Source: a phage. From it: a DNA stretch of 64,000 bases. The notes under the pieces were generated by a model that ran no database searches, was not told the DNA's origin, and was given only the letters and a program-made list of their open reading frames with translations. Shown here one piece after another: positions 3,363-11,265 of this stretch (positions are counted from its first letter, which is position 1; each line of letters opens with the position of its first letter). The DNA is taken from NCBI GenBank assembly GCA_011816565.1, contig GCA_011816565.1_3614.1, one strand, 5' to 3'. The position numbers and the translations under genes are program-made.

Positions 3363-4049
3363 ATGGCAGAGATTAAGTCGGATGTTAACCACATCCACAC
3401 TCTGCCAGATTTTGTTCAGGGAGGTCTTGACTACCTGCCTGGAGATTTTCTGGCTGAGAAGGTTAATTTAGTCACATTCTTAACCGTGTACCTTAAAAGG
3501 TTGGAGGATGTTGATAAGATGCTGGTAGGTTTGGCTGAAGGAAGATTGCTTAACAATGCCAGCGGAAGATACCTTGACGAAGTTGGTAATCAGCTTGGTA
3601 TTCTTAGGAATGGACTTTCAGATGCTGATTTTCGTGCCACACTAATTATTCAGCAGGCTGCAGCATCAAGGGGCGGGACTCGCGAAGATGTCATCTCCAC
3701 CTTGCGACAATTGTTCGGAAGAGACAATTTCGATACGTGGAAAGGAGACAACTTCAGGTTTGACATAAATATTAGAAAAACTTGCTTTGACATATTGCAG
3801 TCTATCGATCAGATCTTAGATATGCTACCATTACCTTGTCATTTGCGTCTTACAGAATCGCAAGGGCAAGCTTTTGGTTTTGAAGGGGACTCTACAGCTC
3901 TTGGCTTCGGATCAGTGTGGGAAGAAAGCCAATTCGGAGTTGGTGGGCTGGCTACTTTGCTATATGTTCCTGACGTAAGACCTGATTGGGACACCACAAC
4001 CATTTATTGTGAAAGTATTACAGTAAACGCAACTAGACAGGAGGGTTAA
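3363..4049 (+). CDS. putative baseplate/tail structural protein
   Basis: 228-aa ORF immediately after the J-like gene with RBS; no specific motif recognised. Confidence 0.4.
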   Translation: MAEIKSDVNHIHTLPDFVQGGLDYLPGDFLAEKVNLVTFLTVYLKRLEDVDKMLVGLAEGRLLNNASGRYLDEVGNQLGILRNGLSDADFRATLIIQQAAASRGGTREDVISTLRQLFGRDNFDTWKGDNFRFDINIRKTCFDILQSIDQILDMLPLPCHLRLTESQGQAFGFEGDSTALGFGSVWEESQFGVGGLATLLYVPDVRPDWDTTTIYCESITVNATRQEG

Positions 4050-6121
4050 TGGCAACAGCTGTTTTTAAACCTTACCGTGATTACTCTACAATGGCTGCAC
4101 AGTTTCATTACCGAACAGTTCAGGATACTGCCGTTCCTGGTAGGGATTATAATCATGTTGAGGGCGATATAACTATCCCAGTTGGGGCAACAAGTATTGA
4201 GATCCCCGTGGAAATTGTTGACAAATTACCCAACAGGTTGCCAAGAAGCTTCTTTATGGAGTTTTCATCAAAATCCCAAGGGGTAATGATTGGAACACAA
4301 AGGGCGAAATGTACAATAGTTTCAGATGAGAATCTTGACAGGATATCTTGGGATACTGTTGAGGAGAGAATGTTTCACCCAAGGTATTGGGTTACAACTA
4401 CTCAGCAGACTGAAAGTACCTGTATTGTTGCAGATAACAACTGTTGTATTAACCGTTTAGTGTCAAGAACATATGGAGGTATGGCTGGGTGTATTTGGGA
4501 AACAGTTGACAAGTATGACCATTTCGGCATTGGGTTTGATGATCACTATGAGATGAGAAACACCAAGCTCTGGTTCAGAATGTCAATAACCAACGCCAGC
4601 AACTTCTCCACTCCTGAAAAGATGATTATGACTGTAGACCTTGTTGATGGCACAATCATCTATGTTCCTTTAGCTCAATATGCTGTCAGCATCTCAGAGG
4701 ATAAGAATGTTGCAGAAATTCATATTGATTTTGAGGACTGCGTCGGGATGGACCAGAACAACAACATGATGGGTGTTGATCCTCGGCAGGTGAGAAGGAT
4801 TTTAATACCACTCATGCCTAAAGACTGGGTAAGTAACAGCACAGACCCGAGAACGGAAAATGTAGAGTGTGAGTTGCGCCTAGATCTGCTTCAGCCAGAC
4901 ACAGGCTGGAAAATGATGCAACTTAACAATATTCAGGTTAAAGAGCACGACGTTGGGATCTGCACCGCATATGACGATATGTGGAACGTATCTCCTTTAA
5001 GGGTGTTGAACAATATCAAGCGTCTGGGCTATACCGGAACCATAAACCATTATGTTGGTATGAGTCATTATTATGACTACACATGGTCAGGAACCCAATG
5101 GTCTATAAACAGAACAGGGGCGCTAAACGCTGCAGCTTATAAATGGCATGATGATTTTATGCACAATGCCAAACGACATAACTTCGACGTTATGCAATCT
5201 GTAAGTTTTGAGCTTTTCAGCGATGCCTGCCCGTTGGAATGGACCCAAAGAGACTGGAACGATAACTACGCTAAAACAGGGTATACACCCTGTAGCTACC
5301 TCCTGTCTCCAACCATTGAAGAGGGTATGAATTTCCTTACTGCAGTATTTAAGAATTTTGCATCAGCCGCTATGAGAAACAACCTGCCAGTGATTATGCA
5401 GGTTGGTGAACCGTGGTGGTGGTACAATACCGATACTCGTAGACCTTGTATTTATGATTACCCTACAAAGCAGGCGTTTTATGATGAGACAGGTGAGTAT
5501 GCATTAGATATTGGGACTATTGACGATCCTAAAACTGGCGGTGTTTACGACAAGTATGTAGCATTTTGTCGTGGTAAGCTTGGCGCTCGTATTGCGGCTA
5601 TTTCAAAGGCAATAAAGGCACACGCTGCATCAGCTCAGATGACAGCTTTGCTGTTTTTCCCAACCATTATGGAAACCGAGCTTACGCAAAAGCTGAACCT
5701 TGCTGACCAATATAAAAAGGAAGCAGGTGCTCTTGATTTCTTCTGCACCGAGTGCTACGATTGGGTGATGCAGGGAGGTATTGAAAAGGCAAAAGAGTCT
5801 GTAAACATACCTATCGTTAAGTTAGGTTGGCAACCGTCTGAAATACAATACCTTGCAGGGTTCGTTCCTAGTAAAGAGCTTGCTCCGGTATATGGATACG
5901 ACCCAACTAGGAATTACCAAGAATTTTTATGGAGATGTATTTGCGGAAACATGGCAACTATAGAGTATAGATACCCTGAGGTAAAACAGTATGTGTGGGC
6001 ATACCCGCAAGTAATGTCTGACAGCATCACTGTTACCGCTAGAGATTCTACCGTGCTTCATATGGGGCAGGTTGCTCTGAAAGGGTATGTAGAGGATGTT
6101 GTCCCGCCAGACTTCTCATAA
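4049..6121 (+). CDS. tail-associated protein, possible glycanase-like domain
   Basis: 690-aa ORF, start overlaps upstream stop (TAATG). Central region has TIM-barrel-hydrolase-like motifs (VIMQVGEPWWWYN). Enzymatic assignment is speculative. Confidence 0.45.
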   Translation: MATAVFKPYRDYSTMAAQFHYRTVQDTAVPGRDYNHVEGDITIPVGATSIEIPVEIVDKLPNRLPRSFFMEFSSKSQGVMIGTQRAKCTIVSDENLDRISWDTVEERMFHPRYWVTTTQQTESTCIVADNNCCINRLVSRTYGGMAGCIWETVDKYDHFGIGFDDHYEMRNTKLWFRMSITNASNFSTPEKMIMTVDLVDGTIIYVPLAQYAVSISEDKNVAEIHIDFEDCVGMDQNNNMMGVDPRQVRRILIPLMPKDWVSNSTDPRTENVECELRLDLLQPDTGWKMMQLNNIQVKEHDVGICTAYDDMWNVSPLRVLNNIKRLGYTGTINHYVGMSHYYDYTWSGTQWSINRTGALNAAAYKWHDDFMHNAKRHNFDVMQSVSFELFSDACPLEWTQRDWNDNYAKTGYTPCSYLLSPTIEEGMNFLTAVFKNFASAAMRNNLPVIMQVGEPWWWYNTDTRRPCIYDYPTKQAFYDETGEYALDIGTIDDPKTGGVYDKYVAFCRGKLGARIAAISKAIKAHAASAQMTALLFFPTIMETELTQKLNLADQYKKEAGALDFFCTECYDWVMQGGIEKAKESVNIPIVKLGWQPSEIQYLAGFVPSKELAPVYGYDPTRNYQEFLWRCICGNMATIEYRYPEVKQYVWAYPQVMSDSITVTARDSTVLHMGQVALKGYVEDVVPPDFS

Positions 6122-6133
6122 TCAGGAGATAAA

Positions 6134-7174
6134 ATGTCAAAACCTAGTTTTCCATTAGAGATTTGGGCAGAGGAGGATCAGGTTCTGCCTAACACCCACA
6201 GACAGAACAGGCTACGCCCGATTGATGATTTGTGGAGAAAAGGTTGGGATCTTGGTCAAAAGCCCTCATGTGAAGAACTTAACTATATTTTCAATATGCT
6301 CGGAACTTGGGCAAAATACATTGCTGACGAGCAGATCCCCGCTCAAGAAGGCCGTTATCTGGTACGTGATAATAACTTGAGTGATCTTTTGAACATTCCT
6401 GTTGCCCGTAGAAACCTTGGGATTATTACTAAGGAAGAGGCAGACGCCAGGTATGTAAAAGTTACAGGTGATACAATGACAGGCCCATTGGGTTTGCAAC
6501 GTATCAACTTTAAAGCTGCCGAGACAGATAAGGCTTGGATAGAGACAACTATTGGCCCGGATAAGACAACTCTCGACTTTGGGTTAAGTGATAATGCTGG
6601 GTCGTTTGATGATGGTGGTACATCTACGGTAGATGCGTTTCGTTGGAGATTCCAGCCAACTCAGCCGGATATTAATCCAGAGTTCACTTTGATGTACCTT
6701 AACGCGATCACGGCTAATCGTGCGCTGTTGAAAGTGGTAGGCAATGTTGAAGTTGTCGATAACATGAGGTGCAATAACCTTACTATCAGCAATACAGCAA
6801 CATTCACCAACTGTAATGTGGCCAGTCAGTTGACGGCTGGGTCAGTATATGTTAATGGTGGTGCAAGTTGTGACAGTATGGTTGTAAGAAGCCAGCACTG
6901 TGTTGTAGGTAACAGAAATGTGGTGCGCTCCGTGAATGGAGTGACGGCTAACGGTAACGGTGATGTAACGATCACTATCCCGCAGACAGGTGTGCAAGAC
7001 ATCAGAATCGGTGCAAGACTTGTGGACGGCGTTTCTGAATCTCCAATCCGCAACGGCTACGTTGTCACAGGCTGGCATTTCGGTGACAAAAAAGAGATGC
7101 GTGGTTCAACCTACTGGGCAGGACCTTTACAAAAACTTGTAAATGGTCAATGGATCACTGTTAATTATGCATAG
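6134..7174 (+). CDS. tail fibre protein (paralogue A)
   Basis: N-terminus (PSFPLEIWAEEDQVLPNT...KGWDLGQKPSCEELNYIFNMLGTWAKYI) and C-terminus (YWAGPLQKLVNGQWITVNYA) are conserved with ORF 8189-9232; centre divergent. Confidence 0.6.
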   Translation: MSKPSFPLEIWAEEDQVLPNTHRQNRLRPIDDLWRKGWDLGQKPSCEELNYIFNMLGTWAKYIADEQIPAQEGRYLVRDNNLSDLLNIPVARRNLGIITKEEADARYVKVTGDTMTGPLGLQRINFKAAETDKAWIETTIGPDKTTLDFGLSDNAGSFDDGGTSTVDAFRWRFQPTQPDINPEFTLMYLNAITANRALLKVVGNVEVVDNMRCNNLTISNTATFTNCNVASQLTAGSVYVNGGASCDSMVVRSQHCVVGNRNVVRSVNGVTANGNGDVTITIPQTGVQDIRIGARLVDGVSESPIRNGYVVTGWHFGDKKEMRGSTYWAGPLQKLVNGQWITVNYA

Positions 7175-7188
7175 ATCGGAGGACTAGC

Positions 7189-7773
7189 ATGAAAATACTT
7201 CAAGAGTTTAAACTTTACCAACCGGGATCTGGCGAATACCACTCCAACAAGGAAACCAAGGAGCTGACCCCTCAAGAGGTTGAGGATTACACCGCATACA
7301 CTGGGTATTTTTTACGTAATGATGATGGCGATTGGTATGTGCAGTCACGAACATTACGACAAGAAAATCCGGGTTGTATCTTCCTACTTGTTGACGAGAA
7401 GGGAATTCTTAAGACATCTACAGAAGAACCTGATGCCTTATGGCCTGCTCCAGGTCTTCGTGTGGTTATCGCCAAAAAAGAAGAGGTACCAGAAAACATT
7501 ATGCTTCACCACGACGCTTTGCGTTTAGTTGGTGATGAATTTGTCACAGATAATGAATTCTTTGTTCAACAGGCAGAGGGTGTCATAGAGACAGAACTTG
7601 CTTGGGCTACTGCTAGAATTGGTGCCTATCAAGACATGATTGACCTTGAATATGATCTTACTGATGACCAGAAACGTAACATCAGAGATTTGAAAATGTA
7701 CAGGGTAAAACTTCTTGAAATAGATACATCTAAAGCCCCTGACATTTTCTTCCCGGAGCGACCTACCCTCTAA
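7189..7773 (+). CDS. tail fibre assembly chaperone-like protein
   Basis: 194 aa directly downstream of fibre gene; C-terminal region (KMYRVKLLEIDTSKAPDIFFPERP) resembles tail fibre assembly proteins. Confidence 0.45.
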   Translation: MKILQEFKLYQPGSGEYHSNKETKELTPQEVEDYTAYTGYFLRNDDGDWYVQSRTLRQENPGCIFLLVDEKGILKTSTEEPDALWPAPGLRVVIAKKEEVPENIMLHHDALRLVGDEFVTDNEFFVQQAEGVIETELAWATARIGAYQDMIDLEYDLTDDQKRNIRDLKMYRVKLLEIDTSKAPDIFFPERPTL

Positions 7774-7784
7774 GAGGAGGTGTT

Positions 7785-8099
7785 GTGGAGTTGGATTTGG
7801 CGGCATTGTACGGTATCTGCATGGGTACCGTTGTCCCGATCTGTGTATGGGCTTTCAACCAGTGGCACACCAAATGGAAAGGCATTTCCAAGAGGTTGGA
7901 TGAACTGGAGAAAGACCTCATCTTAGTGAAAAACAGCATGGTTACAAAAGATAAACTTGATTCCGTTATCGAGACCCGGTTAAGCAAGCTAGAGGCCGAT
8001 ATTAACGACCTTAAGCAGGATGTCAGGACAGATGTCTCCGGTATCCGAGCTGATGTACAAAAGATTTTGCACATGCTCGTAGAGCATAGTAAAAGGTAA
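7785..8099 (+). CDS. small membrane/coiled-coil protein
   Basis: GTG start after GAGGAGG; N-terminal hydrophobic segment then heptad-like region; followed by terminator. Confidence 0.4.
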   Translation: MELDLAALYGICMGTVVPICVWAFNQWHTKWKGISKRLDELEKDLILVKNSMVTKDKLDSVIETRLSKLEADINDLKQDVRTDVSGIRADVQKILHMLVEHSKR

Positions 8100-8109
8100 A
8101 CAAAGGTCA

Positions 8110-8142
8110 GAACGGAAAGGACTCCGTTCTTGCATTTTGTTC
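8110..8142 (+). terminator. rho-independent terminator
   Basis: GAACGGA-AAGGAC-TCCGTTC hairpin followed by TTGCATTTTGTT. Confidence 0.5.
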
Positions 8143-8149
8143 TCTAAAG

Positions 8150-8158
8150 TGTTAAAAT
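8150..8158 (+). promoter_or_regulatory. extended -10 promoter-like motif TGTTAAAAT
   Basis: TGnTAAAAT about 30 nt upstream of the fibre gene at 8189, directly after a terminator. Confidence 0.3.
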
Positions 8159-8188
8159 AGTCCTAAGGAATTTTCTCAGGAGAACGCG

Positions 8189-9232
8189 ATGACTAAACCA
8201 GTTATCCCTCTTGATATTTGGGCCAATCAGGATGTTGTGCTTGAAAATACGGGAGAGTTGAATAAGTCTCAACCAAAAAAAGAAGAGAGATTGAAAGGTT
8301 GGGATATGACACAAAGAGTGGCATGTGAAGTTGTTAACTTTGAACTTCACATGCTTTCTGCGTGGTTAAAGCATCTAACAGAAGATGTTGTCCCAGGATG
8401 GGATAATAGATTCTTAAGGGTCACTAATAATCTAGCAGACGTTCCAGACAAAGCTGCTGCACGTCAAGTTCTCAATGTATACTCGCCTGAAGAAATGGAC
8501 GATCTGTATGTTGACAAGTCTGGAGACATAATGACCCAGACTCAAACTTTAGGCCTTCAAAGAATCGAGTTTGCATCCGCGTCAACAGACAATGCGGCAA
8601 TATATACCACCATAACCTCAGACAAGACGATGATGGATTTCTGGATTATGGACAACATCGGTGGTGCTGACGGCACAGATCTTGATGATCCTTCTCACCA
8701 AATAGACGGGTTCCGTTGGAGATTTCAGCCTTCTGGTGGGCAGCCTGTGTTTTCGGCTATGAAGCTCAATGCTATAACTGCCAACCGTGCAAGACTGGCT
8801 ATCCAAGGAAATCTTGAATGCAACGATGCAAAAAGTTCCTCTGCAAATGCCAATGCAGTTACTATACCAAGAGCCACTGTTAATGGACAACAATCCTGTG
8901 GAAGCGCTCAAATAGGTGGAAGAGTTGATTGTAACGATGAAACCGTCAGGGGCCAATATGCAACAGTTGGTGGAAGAAACGTGGTCCGCAGGGTAAATGG
9001 TAACGGCGCAGACAGTAGTGGTAACCTTACTATTCCTATGCCTAGCAGAGGGGTTGATGATGTAAGGATAGCAAACCGTTTCAAAACCACCTACAGAGAG
9101 TCAAGAGTCTACCCTGGACATGTGATGTGCTCTGGTAACTACGCTTATAAACACCCTTATCAAGGTGACTACTGGACAGGTGCTATCCAAAAACTTGTAA
9201 ATGGTCAATGGATCACTATATCTTATGCTTAA
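8189..9232 (+). CDS. tail fibre protein (paralogue B)
   Basis: Shares N- and C-terminal domains with 6134-7174 (PVIPLDIWANQDVVLENT...; GDYWTGAIQKLVNGQWITISYA); different central region. Confidence 0.6.
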   Translation: MTKPVIPLDIWANQDVVLENTGELNKSQPKKEERLKGWDMTQRVACEVVNFELHMLSAWLKHLTEDVVPGWDNRFLRVTNNLADVPDKAAARQVLNVYSPEEMDDLYVDKSGDIMTQTQTLGLQRIEFASASTDNAAIYTTITSDKTMMDFWIMDNIGGADGTDLDDPSHQIDGFRWRFQPSGGQPVFSAMKLNAITANRARLAIQGNLECNDAKSSSANANAVTIPRATVNGQQSCGSAQIGGRVDCNDETVRGQYATVGGRNVVRRVNGNGADSSGNLTIPMPSRGVDDVRIANRFKTTYRESRVYPGHVMCSGNYAYKHPYQGDYWTGAIQKLVNGQWITISYA

Positions 9233-9243
9233 AAAGAGGGTAA

Positions 9244-9510
9244 ATGAAACTAACTCAGTTTTTATGGGGACTGGTTGCGGCATCTGATGACCCTACGAAA
9301 GTGTCCCAATCTAAGCTATGGTCGAACATAGGCATGGCGGTGATGACTGGGGTGTTTATTCACATGGGGTATAATGATACGCTTCCTGAATGGTATGCGT
9401 GGATATACGCTCCTTCAGTAGCTTGCCCCCAGCTTATTAGCAAATTCATCTCGCTCCGGTGGGGTTGCCAGCACCCTGACCACGTTAAAAACGAAGAGCA
9501 AAAAGCTTAA
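9244..9510 (+). CDS. hypothetical small protein with hydrophobic segment
   Basis: 88-aa ORF with RBS (GAGGGTAAATG) directly after fibre B. Confidence 0.4.
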   Translation: MKLTQFLWGLVAASDDPTKVSQSKLWSNIGMAVMTGVFIHMGYNDTLPEWYAWIYAPSVACPQLISKFISLRWGCQHPDHVKNEEQKA

Positions 9511-9519
9511 GGAGAAATC

Positions 9520-11265
9520 ATGGCGCAAGACATGACAAGCTTTGAGCAGGCGGTAGATCAAGTAATTGTTGATTCTGAACGTTTGCACCTGATTGTCAAC
9601 GGTAACGCTGTGGATGAAGTTGTCGTAGAGGATGGGACCACCATCCCTACGGTACGAAAAGCCATGCTTGACACCCTTTATTTTAAAACGCCACCGATCC
9701 CTTGGGCGTATGGTGCATCCACAACAGTTTTTAACCAGCTGTATGAGTTTAAGGGGGACACAGGCCCTCAATGGTGGTACGCTCCCGCAGCATCAAAATC
9801 TAACCCGGTTAGAATGCCAGCAGACCCTTCACAATCTCCAAACTGGAGATTATATACCGACTCTGCAGTAATGGCAAAATACTACGCAAAACTTAACAGC
9901 CCTAGGTTCGAAGGTGACCCGCGAGTACCTACACCTCCAATGGACGATAAGTCAGAGTCCATAGCAAACACAGAGTTTGTTGTTGACTATGTTGATAGCA
10001 TATTTAAAGCCATGGAGGGGATGAAAGTTACTGTAGGGTCTTTGGTGGTAAAAGGTCTTACAGAACTTGCTAACACCATAGTTGGGGGCACACTTACCTT
10101 ACATGGGCCTGTTAATGGAGCAGACTCCACTGCACGCTTCAGGAACCTAATCCTCACGGCAAATACTTCTACACTTACTTTTGCGTGGAGCGATCCTAAG
10201 CATGCAGACTGGAGAAGCACAGAGCTGCAACCTCATGAAGTGTCCACCCGCAGGGTTATAGCTGACACTATAACTTCTGGGAAACCAGTGGCTAATAATA
10301 ACGATGTGCATTTTGATGGTCTAGGTAATAACTTTTTTGACTACGTGTACATTCGTGGTAATGCCATGAAGGCAGCAACCGAGCCAACATTGCAGGTCGA
10401 TGGGACTGCCAGGGTTAAGAACCTTGAGGTGACAGGCACCGTTACAGGGATAACCTACTCTGTCGATGGCACCATGATCTACCCTAGCTATATTGAAAGC
10501 ACGGGGGACGCATTAATAAATGGTGATTTAGAAGTTGGCGGATCTGTAGTTATTCGAGGTACAGCCTCTATCCAAAACATAGCTCTGAATACCCTAAGAG
10601 TCAATGAGCGTGCAACTTTTGAAGGGGAAGGGCTTACAGCCAACAAAGGTGTAATTACCGAGCTGACAACCACTACTTTAACTGCAACAACTGCAAACTC
10701 TGAAAACTGCAACGTTACCAGAAACTTGCAGGTAAATGGAGATGTTAGTTTAAACGCAGCAGGGACGGGCACCACCTACCTTCACAACCTTGAAATATCC
10801 GGCACAGTGACTGGGTGGCTGCCAGACTTCTCTAATGTCAACTTTGTTTGTAATGGCATTAACTCCAGTGGCAAGATAACCACCTCTCAAGAAATTGAGG
10901 CGGGTAAAACCATTACTGCCCCTACTTTCCACGCAGGAAAGGTAGATTTTGATTTAGAGGAGGTTGACGCGTCCAGTGGGACATGGACACCTAACGGGCA
11001 GGCCAGTATGTATGTTGTCCACGCGAAAGGGGATTTTACAATAGGACAATGGCCTGGTACATCAGCGGAAGATAAACCTTATCCATTCACTGCGGTTATC
11101 TATGTCATTCAGGATGCTGTAGGTCACAACGTGACTTTGCACGATAAGTATGCTATCCTGTCGGCAACGCCTGTTATTAATAACAAGGCTAATAGTGTTA
11201 CCTTGCTGCAATTAACATATTGTGGTGTTGGTGATATCGTAGACGTAGTAATTGCACAACGTTAA
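9520..11265 (+). CDS. tail fibre protein
   Basis: N-terminal region contains the widespread fibre anchor motif (SPRFEGDPRVPTPPMDDKSESIANTEFV) seen in T7 gp17-like fibres; beta-rich repetitive remainder. Confidence 0.6.
   Translation: MAQDMTSFEQAVDQVIVDSERLHLIVNGNAVDEVVVEDGTTIPTVRKAMLDTLYFKTPPIPWAYGASTTVFNQLYEFKGDTGPQWWYAPAASKSNPVRMPADPSQSPNWRLYTDSAVMAKYYAKLNSPRFEGDPRVPTPPMDDKSESIANTEFVVDYVDSIFKAMEGMKVTVGSLVVKGLTELANTIVGGTLTLHGPVNGADSTARFRNLILTANTSTLTFAWSDPKHADWRSTELQPHEVSTRRVIADTITSGKPVANNNDVHFDGLGNNFFDYVYIRGNAMKAATEPTLQVDGTARVKNLEVTGTVTGITYSVDGTMIYPSYIESTGDALINGDLEVGGSVVIRGTASIQNIALNTLRVNERATFEGEGLTANKGVITELTTTTLTATTANSENCNVTRNLQVNGDVSLNAAGTGTTYLHNLEISGTVTGWLPDFSNVNFVCNGINSSGKITTSQEIEAGKTITAPTFHAGKVDFDLEEVDASSGTWTPNGQASMYVVHAKGDFTIGQWPGTSAEDKPYPFTAVIYVIQDAVGHNVTLHDKYAILSATPVINNKANSVTLLQLTYCGVGDIVDVVIAQR

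Follow-up and report, generated by a model that had tools for sequence, protein, structure and literature searches.

The genome of Escherichia phage rV5 carries two tail fiber genes whose products, gp33 and gp30, are 42.3% identical and resemble short tail fibers, and the published rV5 phage proteome includes gp30, gp32, and gp33 (Kropinski et al. 2013, PMC3606486). Here we analyze the corresponding locus in a 64,000 nucleotide (nt) stretch of phage DNA (contig GCA_011816565.1_3614.1 of assembly GCA_011816565.1; this whole stretch is called “the window” below), where it lies at about positions 6000–9600. This part of the window is 99.4% identical to Escherichia phage V5/rV5 and is matched at ≥90% by more than 110 Vequintavirus genomes, and the window is itself a Vequintavirus sequence. 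The five proteins of the locus are 100% identical in amino acid sequence to rV5 gp33, gp32, gp31, gp30, and gp29, which are annotated in rV5 as tail fiber, tail fiber assembly, gp31, tail fiber, and membrane protein, respectively; the annotation of the BASEL phages has “short tail fiber protein (x2)” and “tail fiber chaperone” here, and there is no difference in the object itself from that of rV5 (PMC3606486, PMC8594841). We think it probable, if well short of certain, that the locus specifies two paralogous short tail fibers and a single chaperone, with dual receptor specificity as a likely but unproven benefit.

An initial annotation of this DNA had paired the two fiber genes as a duplicated receptor-binding cassette with conserved ends and a swapped central region. 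Both open reading frames are present exactly where it had placed them, with the lengths and strand given in Table 1, as are the small gene downstream of the second one and the chaperone and small membrane protein genes that follow the first, and both fibers are indeed duplicated genes of the receptor-binding type, being the Vequintavirus “short tail fiber” paralogs. The swapped center does not survive comparison of the two proteins, as is described below. The feature is real but ordinary, and earlier publications already cover both it and the interpretation given in the initial annotation; they describe the paralogy, the occurrence of gp33 and gp30 in virions, the promoter, and the idea of “two LPS chemotypes” (LPS, lipopolysaccharide) (Kropinski 2013, PMC3606486; Maffei 2021, PMC8594841). 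Not stated in these two papers are the replacement of a phiTE_239-family gene, the concerted evolution of the fiber gene 3′-ends, the estimates of selection, and the covarying intergenic hairpin.

Related fibers in other phages

In phage phi92 the homologous fiber gp147 (fiber III) forms six downward-pointing trimers on the C-domain of wedge protein gp145, and irreversible adsorption is its proposed function (PMC13450770). It is 28% identical to gp33 over the full length and has the same tip motif (GVSES...GHV.TGW.FG.KKELRG...PLQ..INGxW.TV), and its gene lies in the same order as here, namely wedge, fiber, Caudo_TAP chaperone (gp148), and gp31-like protein (gp149). Phage phi92 differs in having a single fiber copy with no second fiber and no phiTE_239-like gene at this place, and its gp29 homolog, gp144, is encoded upstream of the wedge genes.

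The short tail fiber of phage phiTE (gp236; PDB 9CUY/9MJN) is homologous to the V5-like fibers in its N-terminal 90–108 residues, a part which in phiTE is a globular joint bound to wedge 1 (PMC11972413), and the C-terminal motif PIQKKVNGVWVTI is common to it and the rV5-type fibers. It differs in being a 554 amino acid (aa), single-copy fiber that contains Ig-like domains and a long coiled coil, and phage phiTE itself is flagellotropic and LPS-independent (PMC11972413).

The fibers of phage Mu (GpS/GpU and S′/U′; PDB 5YVQ, 9KI1, 8JU3) are homologous in the tip and part of the shaft. Mu resembles the V5-like phages in its Caudo_TAP chaperone, which stays on the fiber, and in its two alternative fibers in one genome, although here a difference in specificity is only proposed. 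Mu particles carry one fiber type as determined by inversion of the G segment, and U and U′ are separate chaperones, whereas here two complete fiber genes point the same way, each with its own signals, one chaperone gene is present for two fibers, and the N-terminal docking domain resembles the phiTE/phi92 type, unlike that of Mu. We rejected an invertible switch of the Mu/P1 type (G or C segment) at this locus; both fiber genes are on the + strand and no inverted repeats flank them, the only ones between 6000 and 9600 being short and imperfect (≤21 nt, ≤86% complementary), and no recombinase is annotated among the neighboring genes in the rV5 and BASEL annotations.

Phage T4 gp12 has the same role in the accepted model, in which a trimer attached to the baseplate adsorbs irreversibly by binding the LPS core, and an HHpred similarity to it has been reported (Kropinski 2013, PMC3606486). 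T4 gp12 chains were not among our PDB matches at E ≤ 1 (phmmer) or E ≤ 0.01 (family profile), and gp12 differs in using gp57A rather than a Caudo_TAP chaperone and in being folded under the baseplate before triggering. We treat the resemblance as a functional analogy rather than as family membership.

The two fibers are collinear homologs

Both proteins match PHROG 4465 over their whole length (gp33, E 1.9e-171, residues 1–346; gp30, E 1.4e-165, residues 1–347; each on profile positions 1–342 of 342), and BLASTP aligns them with one another from end to end at 42% identity over 356 columns (E 2e-92); the background nucleotide identity between the two genes is 51%. In a global alignment their identity is 43% at residues 1–60, 32% at 61–110, 52% at 111–200, 26% at 201–250, 52% at 251–290, 25% at 291–326, and 75% at 327–346. 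The whole center (61–326) is thus 40% identical, about equal to the N-terminus, and the longest well-conserved blocks (111–200 and 251–290) are both central; identity is lowest at 201–250 and 291–326, and only the last ∼20 residues stand out from the rest. Of the arrangement proposed in the initial annotation, the conserved C-terminal tail is therefore present, but the N-terminal domain is not specially conserved and there is no break in the alignment or foreign module at the center. In AlphaFold2 (AF2) monomer models the two proteins agree in their succession of helices and strands over most of their length, and these models, which are of low confidence (pLDDT 63 for gp33 and 61 for gp30; pTM 0.33 and 0.29), were used for the order of secondary structure only.

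A duplicated cassette in which constant N- and C-terminal modules flank a central module exchanged with other phages would fit the nearly identical last 20 residues and the PL(E/D)IWA...KGWD motifs common to both N-termini, and tips are in fact swapped between genera (those of the single-fiber phages BIS47 and TH18 are unrelated). We give it almost no credence, since the centers are homologous without interruption and hold the best-conserved blocks, one PHROG profile is matched at full length by both proteins, the predicted secondary structures are largely collinear, and the exchange seen among related phages affects the C-terminal tip and not the center. The N-terminal 60 residues are no more conserved than the center, no cassette has been exchanged in this genome, and the end-to-end alignment refutes the cassette reading for it. 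Homology of the central regions had been named with the initial annotation as a finding that would speak against it, and such homology is present.

When the PDB was searched with a profile built from 36 members of the fiber family, the N-terminal 90 residues of the short tail fiber of phiTE (9CUY, in which residues 3–92 are modeled) were matched with E 3e-35, and in phmmer searches against 9cuy_c gp33 gives 1.4e-19 (residues 1–108) and gp30 1.4e-9 (residues 1–83). Twelve N-terminal residues that are invariant in the family (P4, P7, W11, A12, L18, N25, P29, G37, D39, E47, N50, and W59) are kept in both proteins. Profile positions 279–345 match the Mu GpS tip (438–503 of 5YVQ chain A, E 3.2e-14) and positions 75–191 match part of the GpS shaft (150–261). 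With gp33 alone Mu GpS is found by phmmer (6.2e-6) and by Foldseek with the AF2 model (5yvq_A, 4.6e-7); gp30 alone gives no phmmer match to Mu GpS and its AF2 model no significant Foldseek match in the PDB. The two null results count against our overall account, and because of them the membership of gp30 in the GpS tip type is drawn from its alignment with gp33 and from the family profile. No Pfam domain is above threshold in gp33, gp30, gp31, or gp29. Judged by sequence similarity, both fibers are full-length homologs of the Mu GpS/phi92 gp147/phiTE short tail fiber family.

The tip motif of gp33 matches the tips of phi92 and SalP219, and gp30 carries CSGNYAYKHPYQGD in place of TGW.FG.KKE.RG. 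The last 58 residues of gp33 are also 57–59% identical to the tail fiber ends of unrelated small Salmonella and Escherichia phages, including the Salmonella phages SE13, yarpen, and UPF_BP2 (∼52-kb genomes); as these matches indicate, the gp33 tip type appears to move between phage groups.

Origin of the second fiber gene

The single-fiber phages SalP219 (Seunavirus), BIS47 (Mydovirus), and TH18 (unclassified) and two metagenomic contigs (L015 and L016) have a common gene order, in which the wedge genes are followed by the fiber, the chaperone, a gp31-like protein (104–112 aa), a 152–157-aa membrane protein, a short gp29-like protein, and a gp28-like fiber. The 152–157-aa gene stands at this point in all seven single-fiber Vequintavirinae loci that were examined. 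In the V5-like phages gp30 fills its slot, and it does so after an 89-nt spacer that contains a hairpin and a promoter motif. The displaced protein is polytopic, with about four hydrophobic segments, has the precomputed Pfam annotation Phage_phiTE_239, and belongs to PHROG 7451; its gene overlaps the preceding gene by 4 nt in the loci whose coordinates were read. Our Pfam search with the SalP219 157-aa protein did not recover PF26221, which precomputed annotations give for its homologs. Homologs of the 157-aa protein are present in 108 phage records, with no V5-like record among the organisms and matches listed, and tblastn found none in the window (best E 0.96). The phiTE-type phages appear to keep this gene, as the family name Phage_phiTE_239 and matches in Pectobacterium/Certrevirus phages indicate. 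Two fiber matches per record were found in V5-like records only, among the matches listed from 50,697 phage records searched.

Gene 33 lies immediately between the wedge and gp34 genes on its upstream side and the chaperone gene on its downstream side, and gp33 is more similar to the outgroup fibers than gp30 (44–46% versus 38–39% identity). In neighbor-joining (NJ) trees the gp33 and gp30 clades are sisters in both the full-length and the central partitions. By position and sequence gp33 is the positional ortholog of the single fiber of related genera, in the ancestral place, and it has kept the tip type common to phi92 and Seunavirus. From these comparisons we conclude that gp30 is the product of a duplication within the V5-like lineage and has since diverged faster. 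Against this stand the facts that the trees are NJ trees without bootstrap and that in the N-terminal NJ tree the gp30 clade falls outside the other fibers. That outlying place would fit a different origin, and gp30 may have been acquired from an unsampled relative or lineage.

Selection on the two copies

Among V5-like genomes the ratio of nonsynonymous to synonymous substitution rates (dN/dS) is 0.02–0.03 for gp33 and about 0.06 for gp30. In most comparisons between paralogs and between lineages dS is saturated. The dN of gp30 is about twice that of gp33, and in the alleles examined 22 amino acid positions vary in gp30 and 10 in gp33. The same order holds farther away; the two-fiber phage L008 is 87% identical to the window in gp33 and 78% in gp30, and the 135-kb metagenomic contig L007 is 73% and 48% identical, respectively. 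Neither open reading frame is interrupted in the window, in two divergent lineages, or in seven of the other eight V5-like loci fetched. By these estimates both copies are under strong purifying selection and neither is decaying. The alternative raised with the initial annotation, that one copy might not be expressed or assembled, is contradicted by this purifying selection and by the presence of both proteins in the published rV5 proteome.

In one phage, V18 (KY683736), a 1-nt deletion (GG to G) at about position 395 of the locus sequence (L013; about 6183 in the window) falls near codon 25 of the gp33 homolog, and because of it the deposited annotation starts this gene 54 codons late; the deletion could be an error of sequencing, or it could have naturally disabled one of the short tail fibers in a phage that is viable. 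If it is real, phages can live with gp30 alone, and this, together with the faster evolution of gp30, would be expected if one fiber were a redundant or decaying duplicate that is dispensable for infection. That explanation seems very unlikely to us in view of the low dN/dS of both genes, the intact reading frames in nearly all loci, and the detection of both proteins in the rV5 phage proteome; the V18 frameshift, moreover, may be an error.

Concerted evolution of the 3′-ends

A perfect 30-nt match, of which two copies are present and zero are expected by chance, lies near the 3′-ends of the two fiber genes. It is the longest identical run between them, the next-longest being 12 nt. Within the last 20 codons, nine of ten degenerate codons are identical, versus a background of 35% (binomial P = 5e-4), and gp33/gp30 dS is 0.34 there and >1.8 elsewhere. 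The L008 paralogs also agree with each other at the 3′-end, and both have CTG, GTC, and CAG at three synonymous differences from the window pair (CTT, GTA, and CAA). Since the two L008 copies share synonymous variants of their own, gene conversion rather than independent constraint is indicated. Among the V5-like genomes fetched, the tract is in both copies in the window and in rV5, EmilHeitz, V18, and LL12, and in gp33 only in JEP1, EI-SP-GF, and EPFV3.

The L007 contig has a much longer tract. From residue 285 onward its paralogs are 85% identical, versus 46% for residues 1–270 (Fisher P = 7.5e-9), and its two tips are closer to each other than its gp33-type tip is to that of rV5 gp33, while the N-terminal part of its second copy is clearly of gp30 type. 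The converted tract is thus as short as 30 nt in V5-like phages and takes in the entire ∼60-residue tip in L007. These patterns of identity show that the 3′-ends of the two genes exchange sequence by gene conversion. A candidate second conversion tract at residues 31–50 (7/7 same codons) was not reproduced in L008 (4/9) and was dropped. Among close V5-like genomes, dS of gp30 from residue 286 to the end is 0.7–0.9, versus 0.06–0.28 in the rest of the gene, which suggests that the gp30 3′-end is also exchanged mosaically among V5-like phages.

An identical extreme C-terminus maintained by gene conversion, and a single chaperone gene, might be taken to mean that gp33 and gp30 co-assemble as heterotrimers with the shared C-terminal strand as a common element for trimerization or chaperone recognition. 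We regard this as highly improbable. At 42% identity and with several indels in the shaft, a regular trimeric β-structure of mixed chains is unlikely, the two genes have separate promoter-like signals, and the same C-terminal motif occurs family-wide in single-fiber phages (phiTE, Mu, phi92, and SalP219), so that it does not imply mixing.

The preferred account, of two paralogous fibers with one chaperone, can be extended into a joint scheme, which we offer tentatively and as rather unlikely to be right in its entirety. In it, gp30 replaced the phiTE_239-family gene conserved in the subfamily, both fibers share a baseplate, either mixed together or each at sites of its own, and need one virion-retained chaperone, and recurrent conversion of the 3′-ends is selected for compatibility between tip and chaperone.

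Chaperone, small proteins, and intergenic signals

The fiber-assembly chaperone gene directly downstream of the first fiber encodes gp32, which matches Pfam Caudo_TAP (PF02413) at 45.7 bits against a gathering cut-off of 22.1 (E 9e-12; residues 121–192 on profile positions 60–130) and PHROG 136 with E 2.2e-36. Among relatives its C-terminal, Caudo_TAP half is conserved and its N-terminal half is variable. The open reading frame after gp30 encodes gp29, which has no Pfam match and as its sole PHROG match 1322 “membrane protein” (2.7e-32); with no second chaperone gene in the locus, gp32 presumably assists both gp33 and gp30. In Mu the variable N-terminal part of the chaperone binds the fiber tip and the tail fiber assembly protein remains on the mature tip, and the listing of gp32 in the rV5 phage proteome together with gp30 and gp33 is consistent with such retention.

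The small membrane protein noted after the chaperone is gp31 (start codon GTG in the window), which has a single N-terminal hydrophobic segment at residues 5–23, probably followed by a charged, helical or coiled-coil region; in Pfam it has only weak, sub-threshold matches to coiled-coil families. Homologs of gp31 follow the chaperone gene in SalP219, BIS47, TH18, and phi92 (gp149), and homologs of gp29 are found in SalP219, TH18, BIS47, and phi92 (gp144), so both small proteins have stayed with the fiber locus from the V5-like phages to phi92. Despite the “membrane protein” annotation of gp29, a 19-residue hydropathy scan of it showed no segment above threshold. In L007 the open reading frame after the second fiber (7076–7432) has 118 aa rather than 88, and matches gp29 in its first ∼80 residues only. 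The idea that gp31, gp29, and the 157-aa protein form a set for lysis, perhaps spanin-like, was rejected, as nothing but their membrane and coiled-coil character spoke for it; the rV5 lysis genes have been placed elsewhere (gp89 and gp129; Kropinski 2013, PMC3606486).

Between gp31 and gp30, the terminator of the initial annotation corresponds to a hairpin with a U-rich tail (terminator-like scan match at 8109–8130 within the extended stem). Its RNA folds with −17.5 kcal/mol (z = −3.63), the stem has compensatory paired changes in EPFV3 and L008, and the TTGCATTTT tail and a TG(C/T)TAAAATA sequence are invariant in all four two-fiber lineages aligned. The hairpin is absent from the published rV5 terminator list. 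It is predicted to close the gp33-gp32-gp31 unit, as a terminator-like or an RNA-stabilizing stem. The promoter-like motif reported before the second fiber is also present, as TGTTAAAAT 31 nt upstream of gp30, and an identical 37-mer around it is the putative late promoter P030 of rV5 (Kropinski 2013 Table S4, PMC3606486). Ten matches to the pattern TGNTAAAAT occur in the window, all on the + strand, versus 4.6 expected on both strands together; they fit the published rV5 late-promoter motif TggTAaAAtA.

Table 1. Features of the short tail fiber locus and related elements (window coordinates unless a locus or residues are given)
Feature	Position	Strand	Basis or remark
Short tail fiber paralog A = rV5 gp33, 346 aa	6134–7174	+	PHROG 4465; AGGAG ribosome-binding site
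gp33 predicted baseplate (wedge) docking domain	residues 1–90
gp33 Mu GpS-like distal tip	residues ∼279–346
30-nt tract at 3′-end of paralog A, encodes QKLVNGQWIT	7130–7159	+	exact match to 9188–9217
Tail fiber assembly chaperone = rV5 gp32, 194 aa	7189–7773	+	Pfam Caudo_TAP PF02413; PHROG 136
Conserved 104-aa protein = rV5 gp31	7785–8099	+	hydrophobic segment; PHROG 5345
Intergenic hairpin with U-rich tail	8099–8141	+	terminator scan; RNA fold
TGTTAAAAT late-promoter-like motif = published rV5 P030	8150–8158	+	pattern search
Short tail fiber paralog B = rV5 gp30, 347 aa	8189–9232	+	PHROG 4465; AGGAG ribosome-binding site
Partner 30-nt tract at 3′-end of paralog B	9188–9217	+	exact match to 7130–7159
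Conserved 88-aa protein = rV5 gp29	9244–9510	+	PHROG 1322 “membrane protein”
TGNTAAAAT pattern matches	1819, 8150, 13266, 25169, 34397, 45073, 45397, 46099, 58075, 59138	+
152–157-aa membrane protein gene of single-fiber Vequintavirinae	L003:6997–7470, L004:6847–7320, L006:7020–7493, L015:7958–8431, L016:7892–8350

The gene upstream of the first fiber (4049–6121; rV5 gp34, 690 aa) has Calx-beta as well as the N-terminal and TIM-barrel domains of the N4-type non-contractile tail sheath protein (PF23844 and PF23845; E 2e-80). In the BASEL phages it is annotated as a lateral tail fiber that has deacetylase and glycosidase domains. According to a 2026 preprint, Vequintavirus binds the NGR polysaccharide through a fiber with a poly-GlcNAc deacetylase domain, and gp34 may be that fiber. 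At the corresponding place a gp34 gene is absent from SalP219 and BIS47 and present in TH18. The locus also has ∼99% identical counterparts in 16 to 21 GenBank records (MG0656xx) that bear the name “Campylobacter phage” and give Campylobacter jejuni as host; these are probably mislabeled or derived from contaminating coliphages.

Adsorption and the possible value of a second fiber

By analogy with the rest of the family, gp33 and gp30 would each form a homotrimer, attached through its first ∼90 residues to the C-terminal domain of the baseplate's outer wedge protein. Folding of the C-terminal tip would be assisted by gp32, which would probably remain on the tip as in Mu. The tip would then bind the LPS core for irreversible adsorption. 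LL12, a close relative, requires waaC, waaF, and waaG, that is, an LPS core built as far as the first outer-core glucose, a requirement shown for the whole phage. Dual receptor specificity is plausible because tip residues 291–326 differ so strongly (25% identity), and the most likely hypothesis is that the diverged gp30 tip loop would let the virion accept a second LPS-core variant and so widen its host range.

Several observations weigh against this account. One common LPS-core requirement with no notable allelic variation has been found for these phages, and a single shared secondary receptor proposed (Maffei 2021, PMC8594841). Since the L007 paralogs carry the same tip (85% versus 46% elsewhere), the duplication can persist without different tips. 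The phi92 baseplate has only six sites for the homologous fiber gp147 (PMC13450770), and any receptor assigned to either paralog is hypothetical.

If the paralogs instead bound the same LPS-core receptor and differed in their place or partner on the baseplate, or simply raised the number of fibers, it is the N-terminus and shaft rather than the tip that should be kept distinct. This is so in part; over windows in the first ∼105 residues gp33 is 67–83% identical to the first L007 copy and gp30 57–77% to the second, while A-type and B-type N-terminal regions are only ∼30–50% alike and each is kept across lineages. The homogenized L007 tips, the outlying gp30 clade in the N-terminal tree, and the single secondary receptor inferred for all these phages (Maffei 2021, PMC8594841) point the same way. 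However, all 12 family-invariant N-terminal residues are kept in both paralogs, as expected for the same kind of docking site, the phi92 and phiTE maps show one type of site per wedge, and the tip loops differ strongly in the window and L008 lineages. We therefore consider such positional specialization unlikely on the whole, although it deserves serious consideration, and prefer two paralogous fibers of probably different specificity folded by one chaperone.

What this analysis adds is modest. It identifies the ancestral copy and the gene displaced by the extra one, and it finds concerted evolution at the 3′-ends; the last of these and the displacement of the phiTE_239-family gene are worth a line in a comparative study. 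The evolutionary account does yield testable predictions, concerning dependence on a shared chaperone and the need for different tips. If conversion does keep the tips compatible with the chaperone, the receptor specificity of the extra fiber could change gradually or be reset while assembly is preserved. Cocktails for therapy and biocontrol of pathogenic E. coli often contain V5-like phages, whose broad host range has been ascribed to the multi-fiber baseplate; knowing which short fiber commits the particle to infection, and on which LPS cores, would guide the engineering of host range.

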